Shown here one piece after another: positions 1-5,640 of a DNA stretch of 8,294 nucleotides; position 1 is the first letter of the stretch, and each line of letters begins with the position of its first letter. The translations under genes and the position numbers were made by a program. Source of the DNA: a virus (taxonomy: Duplodnaviria > Heunggongvirae > Uroviricota > Caudoviricetes); the IMG/VR virus record IMGVR_UViG_2531839532_000007; one strand, 5' to 3'. The notes beneath the pieces are model-generated. The model did not search any database. It was not told the origin of the DNA and was given only the letters and a program-made list of their open reading frames with translations.

Positions 1-306
1 GGCTAATGAAACACGGCAGTTTGCCCGGATGTTGGGGCTTGAACCGAAGAACACGGCGGTGCGGAGTCCGGAGAGTAACGGCATAGCAGAGAGCTTCGTG
101 AAAACGATAAAGCGTGACTACATCAGTATCATGCCTAAACCAGACGGGTTAACGGCAGCAAAGAACCTTGCAGAGGCGTTCGAGCATTATAACGAATGGC
201 ATCCGCATAGTGCACTGGGTTATCGCTCGCCACGGGAATATCTGCGGCAGCAGGCCAGTAATGGGTTAAGTGATAACAGGTGTCTGGAAATATAGGGGCA
301 AATCCA
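1..306 (+). mobile_element. Right-hand end of an IS2 insertion sequence (3' part of orfB plus terminal inverted repeat); element continues left of the window
   Basis: The 1..295 translation matches the IS2 InsD C-terminus as I recall it, and the sequence ...tggaaatataggggcaaatcca ending at 306 matches the IS2 terminus from memory. The downstream gene loses its N-terminus exactly at this boundary. Confidence 0.85.
2..295 (+). CDS. insD: IS2 transposase OrfB (InsD), C-terminal fragment; 5' end lies outside the window
   Basis: ORF 29..295 is in frame with the window start; the translation ...[55 protein letters not shown]... is the integrase-core C-terminus of IS3-family OrfB as recalled for IS2. 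Confidence 0.88.
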
Positions 307-1402: not shown

Positions 1403-1606
1403 CATTTTCACTTTTTTAAATCCAACGACAGACGGCTGGCATTTAAGTATTGTGAAATATTATCAAATGTAATCATCATTGATTTACAAAAGATACATTT
1501 TGCCCCGAAAGGATTCATGTCAGAAACATCAAAAGATGATGTTCTATACTGGGAACCATGACAACACGGGCATCTAAAGTGAATATGGTTTGTAATATTG
1601 TCTACC

Positions 1607-1819
1607 TCAAAGCGCCACTACATGAACAGCGGCAGGACCTTTAGGTCCGTTCTCAATACCAAATTCAACTTCCTGATTCTCAGTTAATGTTTTGAAATCG
1701 TTGCTCTGAATTGCTGAGAAATGGACAAACACATCTTTGCTGCCATCTTTCGGCGTGATGAAACCAAAACCTTTTTCAGGGTTAAACCATTTCACTAAAC
1801 CAGTCATTTTGTTAGACAT
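1607..1819 (-). CDS. cspI: Cold-shock protein CspI (CspA family, 70 aa)
   Basis: [70 protein letters not shown] carries the RNP1/RNP2 motifs (KGFGFI, VFVHF). The leader ends in AAAGGTAATAATT-ATG, like the cspA leader. Confidence 0.95.
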
Positions 1820-1999
1820 AATTATTACCTTTTGAAGAAATTAGCCCTTGGGCAGAATGGTCCGAAAAAAAATATCAGAGAGAAAAACCAACAAGGAAAT
1901 CTCAAGAGGTACAAATAATAAAATTATAACAATGACTGCTTCAGATAAATTTGTAACAAACCAGAACACCATTAACGCATGATTAACCACCCATAGCAA
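1820..1999 (-). promoter_or_regulatory. cspI promoter (-35 TTGCTA at 1999..1994, -10 GTTAAT at 1976..1971) and ~145-nt 5' UTR
   Basis: cspA-type architecture with a 17-bp spacer and an AT-rich upstream region. The 11-mer ATGCGTTAATG spanning the -10 is identical to that of the cspB promoter in this window. Predicted leader length is about 145 nt. Confidence 0.45.
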
Positions 2000-3521: not shown

Positions 3522-3737
3522 TTACTCTCCTCTCGCAGCCTTACGCCTGTCTTCTTTAATCTTGAAATAAAGATTTGTCAGATACGTCAGCAGGCCAAAA
3601 ACCAGGCTACCCAGCACACCGATTGCAGCCCACTGTGACGGAGTTACTTTATCGAGTAACTGCAATGCCCAGAAACCAGCATTACCCGCCGATGTGCCAT
3701 AGGCAACACCTGTTGTTAACTTATCCATTGATTTCAT
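3522..3737 (-). CDS. essQ: Class II holin / pinholin (phage 21 S-like), 71 aa with dual-start motif
   Basis: [71 protein letters not shown] has two transmembrane segments and a charged C-terminus. Met1 and Met4 give the holin/antiholin dual start. The ORF-track extension to 3812 starts at a GTG with no Shine-Dalgarno. Confidence 0.85.
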
Positions 3738-3956
3738 ATCCTCACCCCGATGTACACGGATGGTGCAATATGTTTGAAAAGATCGGAGTCTACGGGGTAG
3801 TTTTGACAGCACACGTTGTTCTCAACGGCGCTAAAAAAACATACACATTAAAAATGTGGGTAATTATTTTGAAAGAAAGTCATATATAAAATAATAATAC
3901 GAGAAATGTTTTCATATTTAGTGTACTGTATACGGCCATTTATACAGGAAAAGCCT

Positions 3957-4127
3957 ATGTCAGAACGTAAAAACTCAAAATCACGCCGTAATTATCTCGT
4001 TAAATGTTCCTGCCCAAACTGCACCCAAGAGTCAGAACACAGTTTTTCAAGAGTACAAAAAGGTGCCCTTTTGATCTGCCCTCATTGCAACAAAGTATTC
4101 CAGACAAATCTTAAAGCTGTAGCCTGA
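3957..4127 (+). CDS. Small zinc-ribbon protein (56 aa, CxxC…CxxC), antisense to the late operon
   Basis: MSERKNSKSRRNYLVKCSCPNCTQESEHSFSRVQKGALLICPHCNKVFQTNLKAVA with an AGGAAA Shine-Dalgarno 6 nt before ATG 3957. The ORF-track start at 3906 has a poorer Shine-Dalgarno. It may correspond to a small Qin protein annotated in recent K-12 releases, but I cannot name it with confidence. Confidence 0.5.
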   Translation: MSERKNSKSRRNYLVKCSCPNCTQESEHSFSRVQKGALLICPHCNKVFQTNLKAVA

Positions 4128-4180
4128 TTGATTTTATTAGTAACAAGTATTTTTTATATTTTAATAATATATTTAAAGCA

Positions 4181-4208
4181 GATAATAAAAAACCCGCCTG
4201 AGCGGGTT
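4181..4208 (-). terminator. Intrinsic terminator (strong on minus strand, weak on plus) between cspB and the zinc-ribbon ORF
   Basis: Perfect 7-bp stem AACCCGC-CTGA-GCGGGTT; the minus-strand reading is followed by UUUUAUUAUC. It lies about 280 nt downstream of the cspB stop. Confidence 0.55.
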
Positions 4209-4490
4209 TGAGATTGTGGTGCTTTTTGTGGGAGTCATCCACTTACGCACTTTGTTTTGCCATGCCAGCAGTTAGCTTCTGCTGTAAAACTATTCATGCA
4301 GCAAACCTGCACTTCACCACAATGGTTAGCATACTTTTCCTGATTAAGATTTTGCCAAATATGCTAGCCATTGTTTCATGTATTGGACCTCCTTACTTTT
4401 TATTAAAGAGATCCAATATTCACTACTCTGTCCGTATCTCTACTCAGGCATCAGCCTTCTTCGTTATCGTATACAGACGAGCGATGAATT

Positions 4491-4706
4491 TTAATCAGTA
4501 ATGATGACATTTGCTGCTGCAGGACCTTTAGCACCACTCTCTATAGAGAAGGTAACCTTTTGACCTTCAAATAAGGTTCGATAATTATCATTCTGAATCG
4601 CAGAAAAATGCACAAACACATCTTTACTACCATCAACAGGAGAAATAAAGCCGAAACCTTTATCAGCGTTAAACCATTTTACTAAACCAGTCATTTTATT
4701 TGACAT
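4491..4706 (-). CDS. cspB: Cold-shock protein CspB (CspA family, 71 aa)
   Basis: [71 protein letters not shown] with RNP motifs; AAGGAA Shine-Dalgarno upstream; divergent from cspF as in K-12. Confidence 0.95.
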
Positions 4707-4849
4707 TCTACATTCCTTAACTTGAGCCTTTCGGCATAAATGGTTTGCATAACAGAAACGACTTCGTACTTAATTGGAGAGACTCAAAGAAGGAATAAGT
4801 GAATAACACCTGAAATGAGAACTGCTTTAGTAAACTACTTCGTATATCG

Positions 4850-4902
4850 TCTGTTCTTCAAACCGACGCAATCATTAACGCATAGTTGAACATATGAAGC
4901 AA
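4850..4902 (-). promoter_or_regulatory. cspB promoter (-35 TTGCTT at 4902..4897, -10 GTTAAT at 4879..4874) with a cold-box-like element (TGAAGAACAGA, 4860..4850)
   Basis: 17-bp spacer and AT-rich UP-like region. The element just after the predicted start site matches the cspA cold box TGACGTACAGA at 9 of 11 positions. Predicted 5' UTR is about 160 nt. Confidence 0.45.
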
Positions 4903-5511: not shown

Positions 5512-5548
5512 AAAACCCGCTCATCAGCGGGTTTTCTACTTTTTCTTA
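5512..5548. terminator. Bidirectional intrinsic terminator: cspF terminator on the plus strand and tR'-like terminator of the late leader on the minus strand
   Basis: Stem AAAACCCGCT-CATC-AGCGGGTTTT (perfect 8-10 bp). On the plus strand it is followed by UUCUACUUUUUCUU; on the minus strand by UUUUGUGCUUU. Confidence 0.6.
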
Positions 5549-5565: not shown

Positions 5566-5609
5566 CCCATCGTTGAAAAAATTTTATCCATATTTTTTGA
5601 AAAATGCAA
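5566..5609 (-). promoter_or_regulatory. pR'-like late promoter with sigma70-dependent pause element (target of the Q antiterminator)
   Basis: Minus-strand reading TTGCAT-17 bp-TAAAAT-TTTTTC-AACGATGGG, beginning 32 nt after the Q stop. It parallels lambda pR' (TTGACT-17-TAAATT-TGACTC-AACGATGGG), including the -10-like AACGAT pause motif, as recalled. Confidence 0.6.
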
Positions 5610-5640
5610 ACATCATGTCGCCATCTTCAGCAAAAATCAT

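Follow-up and report, generated by a model that had tools for sequence, protein, structure and literature searches.

The 56-residue open reading frame on the plus strand of this 8,294-nt window, by which we mean the whole stretch of DNA that was analyzed, is ynfU (b4776) of the cryptic prophage Qin of Escherichia coli. Taking the evidence jointly, we consider it likely that this known and translated Cys4 zinc-ribbon gene has a compact promoter of its own, that the inverted repeat beside its ribosome-binding site is incidental, that the gene travels with a mobile set of cold-shock genes, and that its product acts as a binding protein. Little of this is new overall; a 2019 publication already described the gene, its translation, and its zinc-knuckle motif, and ynfU is in RefSeq, Pfam, and NCBIfam. 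The additions made here are the dismissal of the repeat, the definition of a promoter-like element, and the linkage of ynfU to csp genes.

Identity and translation of ynfU

The reading frame runs on the plus strand from an ATG at 3957 to a TGA at 4125-4127 and specifies MSERKNSKSRRNYLVKCSCPNCTQESEHSFSRVQKGALLICPHCNKVFQTNLKAVA, a 56-residue product that contains the CxC-PxC and CPxC knuckles of a zinc ribbon. The 315 nt of the region are 100% identical to K-12, in which ynfU occupies 1640805-1640975 of NC_000913.3, and the gene is annotated in 1,651 of 5,426 complete E. coli genomes. Both family models score the product well above their cut-offs, PF23499 with 107.3 bits (cut-off 27, 3.5e-31, model positions 1-49 of 49) and NF038384 with 79.4 bits (cut-off 36, 1.1e-22), which places it in the YnfU family. 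It does not differ from the type member of that family, K-12 YnfU, with which it shares its sequence, its length, its four cysteines, and its position in Qin.

The coding status of ynfU is well supported by the differences from the E. coli gene at the three codon positions, which stand at 671:236:1344 over 75 species, and by a Shine-Dalgarno (SD)-like motif in all 80 homologous loci. The CAGGA columns of the aligned upstream regions show almost no variation, and strong purifying selection acts on the protein. In K-12, a peak at the ynfU start was seen by Ribo-RET and the product was confirmed by immunoblotting of an SPA-tagged protein (Weaver et al. 2019; bioRxiv 10.1101/511675), which reached the highest level among the newly found small proteins of that study and was produced at 37 °C in rich medium in uninduced cells (bioRxiv 10.1101/511675). 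The gene was recovered independently by PIRT-seq (PMC12350097). The original prediction, made from the letters alone, of a 56-residue CxxC...CxxC protein encoded on the plus strand between cspB and the holin gene thus describes a real and translated gene, flanked by cspB and essQ on the minus strand (Table 1). A 73-residue frame that begins at an ATG at 3906 was rejected: the conserved SD precedes the ATG at 3957 instead, the spacing between this ATG and the conserved upstream block changes by amounts that are not multiples of 3, and stops lie in frame in 39 of the 80 loci.

Table 1. Positions of ynfU, its candidate expression signals, the inverted repeat, and neighboring features in the window.
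Feature	Position	Strand	Comment
Alternative Escherichia-only sigma-70-like site TTGAAA-18-AATAAT	3869..3898	+	10/12 matches; region not alignable outside Escherichia
A/T-rich tract, possible UP-like element	3889..3899	+	Consensus AAAATnAA, A12 and A15 nearly invariant; candidate
-35-position hexamer GAGAAA (family RRGCWA)	3901..3906	+	17-bp spacer to -10-like hexamer; candidate
-10-like hexamer TACTGT (family TAnnGT)	3924..3929	+	27 nt before ATG; candidate promoter element
Left repeat arm CTGTATA	3926..3932	+	Covers last 4 bases of -10-like hexamer; not conserved outside Escherichia
Right repeat arm TATACAG	3941..3947	+	About +4 to +12 of the putative ynfU transcript
Shine-Dalgarno AGGA	3947..3950	+	6 nt before ATG; begins with the final two bases of the right repeat arm
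ynfU CDS (56 aa and stop)	3957..4127	+	Cys4 zinc ribbon, basic N-terminal tail
GC-rich hairpin AAACCCGC-CTGA-GCGGGTTT	4190..4209	.	63 nt past ynfU stop; strong intrinsic terminator on minus strand (cspB side)
essQ, class II (P21 S-type) holin	3522..3737	-	Divergent from ynfU; PF04971 4.4e-34; RefSeq annotation
cspB mRNA (CDS 4491-4706)	4475..4867	-	Convergent with ynfU; cspA thermoregulator family RF01766, 158.8 bits
Hairpin	5512-5535		
PR'-like promoter candidate TTTGCA-18-TAAAAT	5581..5610	-	Just downstream of Q gene; presumed origin of the late transcript, antisense through ynfU, from lambdoid organization

A conserved promoter-like element

Upstream of the gene, the homologous loci share a layout that looks like a promoter in 78 of 80 species, consisting of an A-tract, a G at the -35 position, a 17-bp spacer, the hexamer TAnnGT, and a leader of about 20 nt with AGGA. 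The T, A, G, and T of TAnnGT are invariant in 55 aligned upstream regions, and the distance of the hexamer from the ATG is 27-30 nt in 77 of the 80 species and 22 nt in another. The three positions that define a sigma-70 -10 element (T-12, A-11, and T-7) are all occupied without exception across the 55 sequences, and at the -35 position a G (G22) is invariant 21 columns before T43. At the 17-bp spacing, only the G and the last A of GAGAAA fit TTGACA, for which the upstream A-tract may compensate. This conservation is non-coding, since the distance to the ATG varies among 27, 28, 29, and 30 nt and in-frame stops occur just upstream in 39 of the 80 loci. The motif accompanies ynfU into unrelated contexts, including a Klebsiella phage and the locus of a distant relative (L092), and promoter and gene are equally conserved where no phage surrounds them.

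If the element is used as its layout suggests, ynfU would be a self-contained unit, with the A-tract, a weak -35 GAGAAA, the 17-bp spacer, and the -10 TACTGT directing a transcript that would start near 3935-3938 (K-12 1,640,783-1,640,786), carry AGGA in a leader of some 20 nt, and end probably at or near the hairpin at 4190-4209, in common with the convergent cspB. On the plus strand, only TTT follows this hairpin, and autonomous termination in that direction is weakly supported. The element offers precise positions for 5'-end mapping and mutagenesis. The supplementary tables of the Cappable-seq (PMC4782308) and SMRT-Cappable-seq (PMC6131387) studies list no entries for K-12 1,6407xx-1,6409xx.

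The -35 match of the conserved element is poor (2-3 of 6), and its conserved G residues at -8 and -13 do not belong to the sigma-70 consensus. By eye, the conserved block fits none of the sigma-32, -28, -54, -E, or -S promoters. The view that the region holds weak promoter candidates only was partly right: the number of promoter-like sites equals the shuffle expectation, but a scan did find TTGAAA-18-AATAAT (3869-3898, 10/12). This E. coli-specific site fits the consensus better than the conserved element does, and the G of its TTGAAA is an A in several E. coli variants. If it were used, it would put the whole inverted repeat into a leader of about 52 nt.

Linkage to cold-shock genes

Across Enterobacteriaceae, ynfU is linked to csp, ymcF-like, and ynfN-like genes in a way that is tight, variable, and mostly outside prophages. 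At least one of these genes lies within 1.5 kb of ynfU in 64 of 80 species loci (none in the other 16), while lysis or Q genes lie within the same distance in only 9. At least five different arrangements of ynfU with csp genes were found, among them an uninterrupted block gnsB-ynfN-ymcF-cspI-ynfU-cspB-cspF in a Citrobacter locus, and a relative of about 40% identity also adjoins CSD and YmcF-like genes. In Enterobacter, Klebsiella, and Kosakonia, the neighbors of ynfU are chromosomal metabolic genes. The linkage is an association and does not itself specify a function, and the loci of related species share ancestry.

These arrangements suggest that ynfU is one member of a mobile group of small genes associated with cold shock (csp, ymcF-like, ynfN-like, and gnsB). 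The group is chromosomal in most Enterobacteriaceae, and in Qin-type lambdoid phages it flanks the lysis cassette as accessory "moron" cargo. Morons of lambdoid phages, such as stx, bor, and lom, are accessory genes inserted between Q and the lysis genes, each with a promoter and a terminator of its own. Like them, ynfU lies between Q and the holin gene, has what appears to be a conserved promoter of its own and a hairpin downstream, and is expressed from a cryptic prophage in normal growth, its protein having been detected in uninduced K-12; on these grounds it resembles a phage moron. Unlike them, it faces against late transcription, and together with csp genes it is mostly chromosomal outside Escherichia and Citrobacter.

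The E. coli cold-shock clusters (cspB-cspF, cspI-ymcF-ynfR-ynfN-gnsB, and cspG-cspH-ymcF-gnsA) consist of the kind of genes in which ynfU is embedded in the 64 species. YnfR, CspB, and CspI are cold-induced, and cspB, cspI, cspF, and ynfN are induced in long-term stationary phase (PMC6001520, PMC7406224), a condition in which the loss of cspB or cspI has a phenotype (PMC7406224). For ynfU itself, no evidence of cold induction was found in the literature. The csp genes have a leader of about 160 nt, whereas that of ynfU would be about 20 nt; because YnfU is produced in rich medium at 37 °C and its gene appears to be without a long csp-type leader, it is not obviously cold-regulated. The linkage nonetheless supplies a relatively abundant small protein with a testable neighborhood of cold shock, stationary phase, and RNA chaperoning.

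Position relative to late transcription

The original prediction also held that the ynfU mRNA is antisense to the Q-dependent late transcript, and the orientation is indeed head-on in the window, where RefSeq annotates antitermination protein Q, a PR'-like sequence (5610-5581 on the minus strand) and a hairpin (5512-5535) lie downstream of it, and the minus-strand holin gene follows. A moron-type placement of ynfU around the lysis cassette would account for this head-on arrangement. The alternative is that the arrangement serves control, in that transcription of ynfU, or its mRNA of about 250 nt, opposes the late transcript just before it reaches the holin gene and thereby delays lysis or dampens it, either through collision or because RNase III cuts the duplex. 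We regard this as improbable. The PR'-like and tR'-like signals downstream of Q are consistent with it, as is the recurrence of an opposite-strand ynfU between Q and holin, which is seen not only in Qin but also in HannyBb, an active phage, and in a Klebsiella phage that has an unrelated, LydA-type holin and no csp genes. The Q-S junction of lambdoid phages is, however, a well-known insertion hotspot for accessory genes, which accounts for this recurrence without a regulatory role. The scarcity of lysis or Q genes near ynfU, the purifying selection on the protein, and the undiminished conservation of promoter and gene outside phages also argue against it, and since most homologs lie in non-phage chromosomal contexts beside csp genes, the antisense relation cannot be the conserved purpose of ynfU. 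Inducible phages that carry ynfU include HannyBb, 2H10, and PhiR42_1. In HannyBb, a run of tiny open reading frames between ynfU and Q contains no tRNA genes and no tandem repeats; its annotation is poor, for the cspB mRNA is located there.

The inverted repeat

Just before the SD, the original prediction had noted a perfect inverted repeat and suggested that it forms a hairpin or binds a dimeric regulator. The repeat itself stands, with two fully complementary arms of 7 nt around an 8-nt loop (3926-3947); neither suggested role is supported. When dinucleotides of the 753-nt intergenic region are shuffled, 45% of the resulting sequences contain a perfect 7-bp repeat with a loop of 3-12 nt; for the 60 nt that precede the ynfU ATG, the figure is 3%. 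The whole window contains 17 such repeats, where shuffling gives 6.6 ± 3.4. Taken by itself, the repeat is not beyond chance at the level of the intergenic region. Over 55 homologous upstream regions, the arm positions pair in 48.0% of cells as compared with 47.9% in shuffled columns (265 of 500 shuffles equal or exceed the observed value), and RNAalifold on the same alignment gives 0 pairs and no consensus structure. The E. coli leader folds like its shuffles (z-scores of +0.17 for 43 nt and -1.07 for 71 nt), and the mean over 65 homologous leaders is -0.2, so that neither the covarying pairing nor the energy below shuffles of a regulatory RNA hairpin is seen. An Rfam scan of 3700-4520 found no family above threshold.

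When conservation among homologous loci was tested, the check that the original prediction had itself named as able to refute it, the dyad proved not to be kept wherever ynfU and its promoter are, as an operator would be: of 65 distinct upstream regions, only 3 contain a repeat of at least 6 bp, and two of those 3 are from Escherichia. In Escherichia sp. E1V33, a C>A change breaks one arm without compensation, while TAnnGT is retained as TAATGT. All E. coli copies examined retain the repeat perfectly, which is uninformative because these copies are at least 97% identical overall. The left arm may not even be transcribed, since it overlaps the conserved -10-like hexamer. The repeat would then be a lineage-specific by-product of the sequence within and just after that hexamer, and it can be dropped as a regulatory candidate.

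Two regulatory roles for the repeat were weighed against this explanation. It is very improbable that an Escherichia dimeric DNA-binding protein represses ynfU by binding CTGTATA-N8-TATACAG, at about -10 to +12 of the ynfU promoter. The site is perfect and covers both the -10 hexamer and the start site, exactly where repressors act, but it is absent as a conserved feature outside Escherichia and lost without compensation in E1V33; its rarity (only 3%) when the 60 nt ahead of the ATG are shuffled is set against the 45% of intergenic-region shuffles that have an equivalent somewhere, and its unchanged state in divergent E. coli copies against an overall likeness of those copies too great for conservation to carry meaning. 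Read from the sequence, the arms TACTGTATA and TATACAG match LexA (SOS) half-sites, but they are spaced as CTGT-N14-ACAG rather than the CTGT-N8-ACAG of a LexA box and are not conserved in other genera, and a LexA box at 3926-3947 was rejected. Further upstream, GAAATGTT at 3903-3910 is what we take, comparing by eye, to be a Zur half-site; as a Zur or Fur box it was rejected, its second half being mismatched and the segment not conserved in other genera.

We hold it just as doubtful that the repeat acts as an RNA hairpin in a longer leader from TTGAAA-18-AATAAT (start near 3905, K-12 1,640,753), where it would partly mask the SD and tune translation or mRNA stability, possibly by temperature. 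That site is the best sigma-70 match in the region, the end of the predicted hairpin (-6.4 kcal/mol) falls within AGGA, and the adjoining cold-shock genes carry RNA thermoregulators. Against this, the hairpin is energetically no better than its shuffles, its homologs share neither structure nor covariation, and the upstream site is absent outside Escherichia and has its -35 G mutated in E. coli variants.

The YnfU protein and its proposed role

In alignments of 24 and 48 YnfU sequences, C17, C19, C22, C41, C44, S26-F30, and K35 are invariant or nearly so, and the product encoded here has the two knuckles (C-x-C-P-x-C ... C-P-x-C) and the SEHSFSRVQKG linker that characterize the family. The structure prediction that had been proposed for the 56-residue product yields a zinc-ribbon topology with a core pLDDT of about 85; zinc binding was likewise proposed from the motif (Weaver et al. 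2019). The protein has a pI of 9.6, with 6 K/R among residues 1-16, and its closest PDB sequence matches, Tim15 (E 0.004) and eL42 (E 0.007), are zinc ribbons that bind nucleic acids or partners. A search of PHROGs with YnfU returned no family and only weak matches (E ≥ 0.002).

The basic N-terminal tail and the invariant SEHSFSRVQKG between the knuckles may form a binding surface, which is the weakest step of the proposed mechanism, and the target could be a nucleic acid (RNA or the ribosome) or a partner protein, alongside the Csp proteins. Our best guess is that YnfU, as a basic zinc ribbon, has nucleic acid or a partner protein as its ligand and works with the cold-shock gene set. A more specific version, which we consider rather unlikely, would make it a fourth dedicated component of an enterobacterial cold-shock module with Csp, YmcF-like, and YnfN-like proteins, binding RNA or the ribosome and assisting the Csp proteins in the cold or under long-term stationary-phase stress, the whole module having been captured by Qin-type lambdoid phages around the lysis cassette. 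If so, prophage carriage would alter the RNA-chaperone repertoire of the host. The zinc ribbon encoded next to ynfU, YmcF, was rejected as a homolog, with an hhalign probability of 0.6% and no sequence relation.

The DNL zinc finger (Tim15/Zim17/Hep1) and eL42 (L44e) are Cys4 ribbons like YnfU, with (S/T)xHSxS after the first knuckle and K(G/K)xxL(I/V)xCPxC before the second, and PDB profile E values of 0.004-0.01. It is extremely unlikely that YnfU is a bacterial relative of the DNL fingers that serves as escort or co-chaperone for Hsp70 (DnaK) or another aggregation-prone partner: Tim15 is the top PDB profile match (E 0.0086 and 0.0043, with C..C...S.H..S....KG..LI.CPHC shared), its core aligns with YnfU at an hhalign probability of 90%, and the convergent neighbor of ynfU in Kosakonia is an HSP20 gene, but zf-DNL (PF05180) scores YnfU at 13.5 bits against a cut-off of 27 and reaches E ≤ 0.1 in only 6 of 24 members, fewer than several generic ribbons do, PhnA (19 of 24) and gpA (17 of 24) among them, YnfU lacks the eponymous D-N-L segment behind its second knuckle and is variable there, and eL42 scores about as well as Tim15.

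A described small-protein gene in Qin

The window covers the part of the cryptic lambdoid prophage Qin of E. coli that holds lysis and cold-shock genes. The genes gnsB, ynfN, ymcF-like, cspI, rzpQ, rrrQ, ydfR and essQ (holin) lie in this order on the minus strand, followed by a plus-strand ORF, cspB (minus), cspF (plus), ydfT/quuQ, which is the Q antiterminator gene (minus), and ydfU (minus). The original prediction placed a 56-residue zinc-ribbon ORF between cspB and the holin; it is there, and it is ynfU, a gene described earlier. The 315-nt interval is 100% identical to K-12, where the counterpart is b4776 (NC_000913.3 1,640,805-1,640,975), and 1,651 of the 5,426 complete E. coli genomes carry it under the annotation "ynfU: putative zinc-binding protein YnfU". 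The product scores 107 bits against Pfam PF23499 "YnfU" (cut-off 27) and 79 bits against NCBIfam NF038384 (cut-off 36). Its cysteines are arranged as C17-x-C19-P-x-C22 and C41-P-x-C44, and a Shine-Dalgarno AGGA stands 6 nt 5' of the ATG.

Ribosome profiling of retapamulin- and Onc112-stalled initiation complexes identified this start codon, and the chromosomally tagged protein was the most abundant among the newly found small proteins in a study that also pointed out its two CPxC zinc knuckles (Weaver et al., bioRxiv 10.1101/511675). The gene was independently recovered in a transposon-reporter screen (PMC12350097), and the papers found that mention ynfU assign it no function. Our sample comprised one ynfU locus from each of 80 species, with 55 distinct upstream regions aligned. 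Differences to E. coli at codon positions 1, 2 and 3 number 671:236:1344 (codons 10-47, 75 species), a cross-species comparison from which the coding status is clear, and all 80 loci have an SD-like motif ahead of the ATG. A 73-residue reading from the ATG at 3906 was rejected, with in-frame stops in 39 of 80 loci and a distance from the upstream block to the ATG that varies among 27, 28, 29 and 30 nt. What is new here is a negative result on the inverted repeat, the exact coordinates of a conserved promoter-like element, and a strong, rearrangement-tolerant linkage to cold-shock-associated genes outside prophages.

Features of the ynfU region and its surroundings in the window
Feature	Position	Strand	Remark
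IS3-family transposase gene, 3' end	1-306		inserted in 5' part of ydfO (DUF1398)
YmcF-like cold-shock small protein gene	1408-1596	-	RefSeq-annotated, absent from the ORF listing; PF23641 6.9e-32; first codon reads Ile
cspI mRNA	1580-1965	-	Rfam cspA thermoregulator family, 112.8 bits
TTGAAA-18-AATAAT	3869-3898		best consensus-scan promoter site
GAGAAA	3901-3906	+	-35 position of putative promoter
GAAATGTT	3903-3910		Zur-like half-site
TACTGT	3924-3929	+	putative -10
TACTGTATA with TATACAG	3924-3947		LexA-like half-sites
CTGTATA	3926-3932		left repeat arm
TATACAG	3941-3947		right repeat arm
ynfU	3957-4127	+	ATG 3957, stop 4125-4127
Strong terminator hairpin	4190-4209	-	~280 nt past cspB stop, 63 nt past ynfU stop
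cspB mRNA	4475-4867	-	Rfam cspA thermoregulator family, 158.8 bits
GC-rich bidirectional hairpin	5512-5535		just downstream of Q gene
PR'-like promoter	5610-5581	-	just downstream of Q gene

Of the 5,426 complete E. coli genomes only 2 match the IS3-family/ydfO junction exactly, so the window does not come from K-12 itself. Given the distance of the terminator hairpin from the cspB stop, 4210-4490 looks like a long cspB 3' UTR; Rfam matches in this stretch are sub-threshold only. The small gene ynfS lies on the opposite strand near the PR'-like promoter and its neighbouring hairpin.

The inverted repeat and a conserved promoter-like block

The original prediction also read a perfect inverted repeat with an 8-nt spacer as a possible hairpin or dimeric-regulator site. 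The repeat exists as described. A perfect repeat of 7 bp with a loop of 3-12 nt arises in 45% of shuffles when the 753-nt intergenic region is shuffled by dinucleotides, and in 3% when the 60 nt 5' of the ATG are shuffled. As RNA, its hairpin (-6.4 kcal/mol, z = +0.17) is no better than shuffles; the 71-nt leader folds at z = -1.07 relative to shuffles, and the homologous leaders have a mean z-score of -0.2 (65 distinct sequences). In the 55-sequence alignment its seven pairs form in 48.0% of cells versus 47.9% after column shuffling, shifting the partner by 1-3 columns gives similar values, and RNAalifold finds zero consensus pairs. Only 3 of 65 distinct sequences, 2 of them Escherichia, hold a perfect repeat of at least 6 bp in the 45 nt 5' of the ATG. 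The repeat is unchanged among E. coli variants, which is uninformative at an overall identity of at least 97%. Across the 80 species' loci it is thus not conserved, and on this comparative evidence its regulatory reading appears to be wrong.

What is conserved is a block that travels with ynfU into differing genomic surroundings, composed in order of an A-rich tract, a hexamer RRGCWA with invariant G, 17 bp, TAnnGT, gCAGnCCaTT, aTCAGGA (the SD) and the ATG. In the 55 aligned regions the T, A, G and T of TAnnGT are invariant and follow RRGCWA at exactly 17 bp. TAnnGT stands 27-30 nt from the ATG in 77 of the 80 species and 22 nt from it in 1 more, and the variants by number of species are TATGGT 43, TACTGT 10, TAAGGT 9, TATTGT 7, TATCGT 5, TAATGT 2 and TAAAGT 2. 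A relative of ~40% identity (locus L092) has GTGTATGGT at equal distance from its ATG. With its invariant T-A....T suitably spaced from the invariant G, the block resembles a sigma-70 promoter whose -35 is weak, and we infer that TACTGT and GAGAAA are the putative -10 and -35 position of ynfU; the G residues conserved at -8 and -13 are non-consensus bases for sigma-70. Transcription would then start near 3935-3938 with a leader of ~20 nt, the left repeat arm would overlap the -10 hexamer and discriminator, and the right arm alone would be transcribed. Escherichia sp. E1V33 has an uncompensated change to A at the first C of the repeat (TACTGT to TAATGT), at one of the two free hexamer positions, which fits a promoter constraint and not a dyad constraint.

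The best consensus-scan site lies within sequence that is not alignable outside Escherichia, and its G is lost in several E. coli variants; it may contribute in K-12. The LexA-like half-sites are spaced CTGT-N14-ACAG, unlike the N8 of a LexA box, and GAAATGTT, by eye, equals what we take to be a Zur half-site; neither is kept in other genera.

Antisense geometry and cold-shock gene linkage

That ynfU is antisense to the Q-dependent late transcript is right as geometry in the window. A transcript from the PR'-like site would pass cspF in antisense, cspB in sense, the hairpin at 4209-4190 and ynfU in antisense before reaching essQ. The active phage HannyBb has the same layout, with ynfU opposite to the late direction, and a Klebsiella phage that lacks csp genes carries ynfU flanked by a Q-type antiterminator and a LydA-type holin, whereas in phage PHB10 a ynfU-cspB-cspF block lies near the integrase instead. 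In lambdoid phages, accessory genes are classically inserted at the Q-S junction, and this, with the mostly non-phage distribution of ynfU, makes a dedicated antisense role unlikely overall, although the phage copies may have one. The original interpretation stands in part, for the protein and the local antisense geometry, and falls for the repeat.

Between ynfU and Q, HannyBb (PP925841.1, L082 3806-6879) is annotated with ~25 tiny ORFs of ~30 aa; Rfam places an unannotated cspB mRNA in this stretch, and a search there for tRNA genes and tandem repeats found none.

Of the 80 species loci, only 9 have lysis or Q genes within 1.5 kb of ynfU; over this distance 58 have a cold-shock-domain gene, 23 a ynfN-like gene and 15 a ymcF-like gene, and 64 have at least one of the latter three. 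The arrangement varies (ynfU> <cspB cspF>; ynfU> cspF>; csp> ynfU>; <csp ynfU>; cspF> ynfU>), and ynfN-like or ymcF-like genes are often divergent from ynfU, 136-420 nt upstream. Citrobacter meridianamericanus holds an unbroken gnsB-ynfN-ymcF-cspI-ynfU-cspB-cspF block without lysis genes, whereas in Qin the lysis cassette lies between cspI and ynfU; the two cold-shock gene groups on either side of the Qin cassette seem to be present in the Citrobacter block in an undivided state. A family member of ~40% identity adjoins cold-shock-domain and YmcF-like genes with ordinary chromosomal genes as flanks, and neighbours in Enterobacter, Klebsiella and Kosakonia are metabolic genes. PHROGs has no family of its own for YnfU. 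The YnfU family is narrow, with 44 cluster representatives at E <= 0.001 out of 1.84 billion, and all loci found are enterobacterial. Four genome records under other labels (Veillonella parvula MAG, Vagococcus sp., Kocuria sabuli and a Bacillota MAG; L004, L026, L036, L038) carry typical enterobacterial ynfU loci, L004 being a full Qin-like segment, and these assemblies are likely contaminated or mis-binned.

Among the neighbours of ynfU, YnfR is cold-induced (PMC6001520), cspB, cspI, cspF and ynfN rise jointly in long-term stationary phase (PMC7406224), and replication inhibition induces cspI and ynfN (PMC11228462). The linkage is a modest, testable clue to what this abundant but uncharacterised small protein does.

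The YnfU protein

The AlphaFold model (48 sequences) has a zinc-ribbon topology, with strands 14-18, 25-29, 38-40 and 47-49, a short helix 30-35, a core pLDDT of ~85 and disordered ends. A zf-DNL (Pfam) identity was rejected, the score being far below threshold and the DNL segment missing; fewer family members match zf-DNL than PhnA or gpA ribbons, and matches to known zinc-ribbon proteins are treated as resemblances. From composition, fold class and gene linkage, YnfU could act with the Csp set as a small zinc ribbon whose target is nucleic acid or a partner protein. It is basic (pI 9.6, with 6 K/R among the first 16 residues), and its most conserved surface is SEHSFSRVQKG, between the zinc knuckles. 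One 186-aa predicted protein from a public assembly (P0058) joins the CspB-like LVKWFNADK directly to CSCPNCTQESEHSF... of YnfU and is probably artefactual, the two neighbouring genes having been fused by assembly or recombination.
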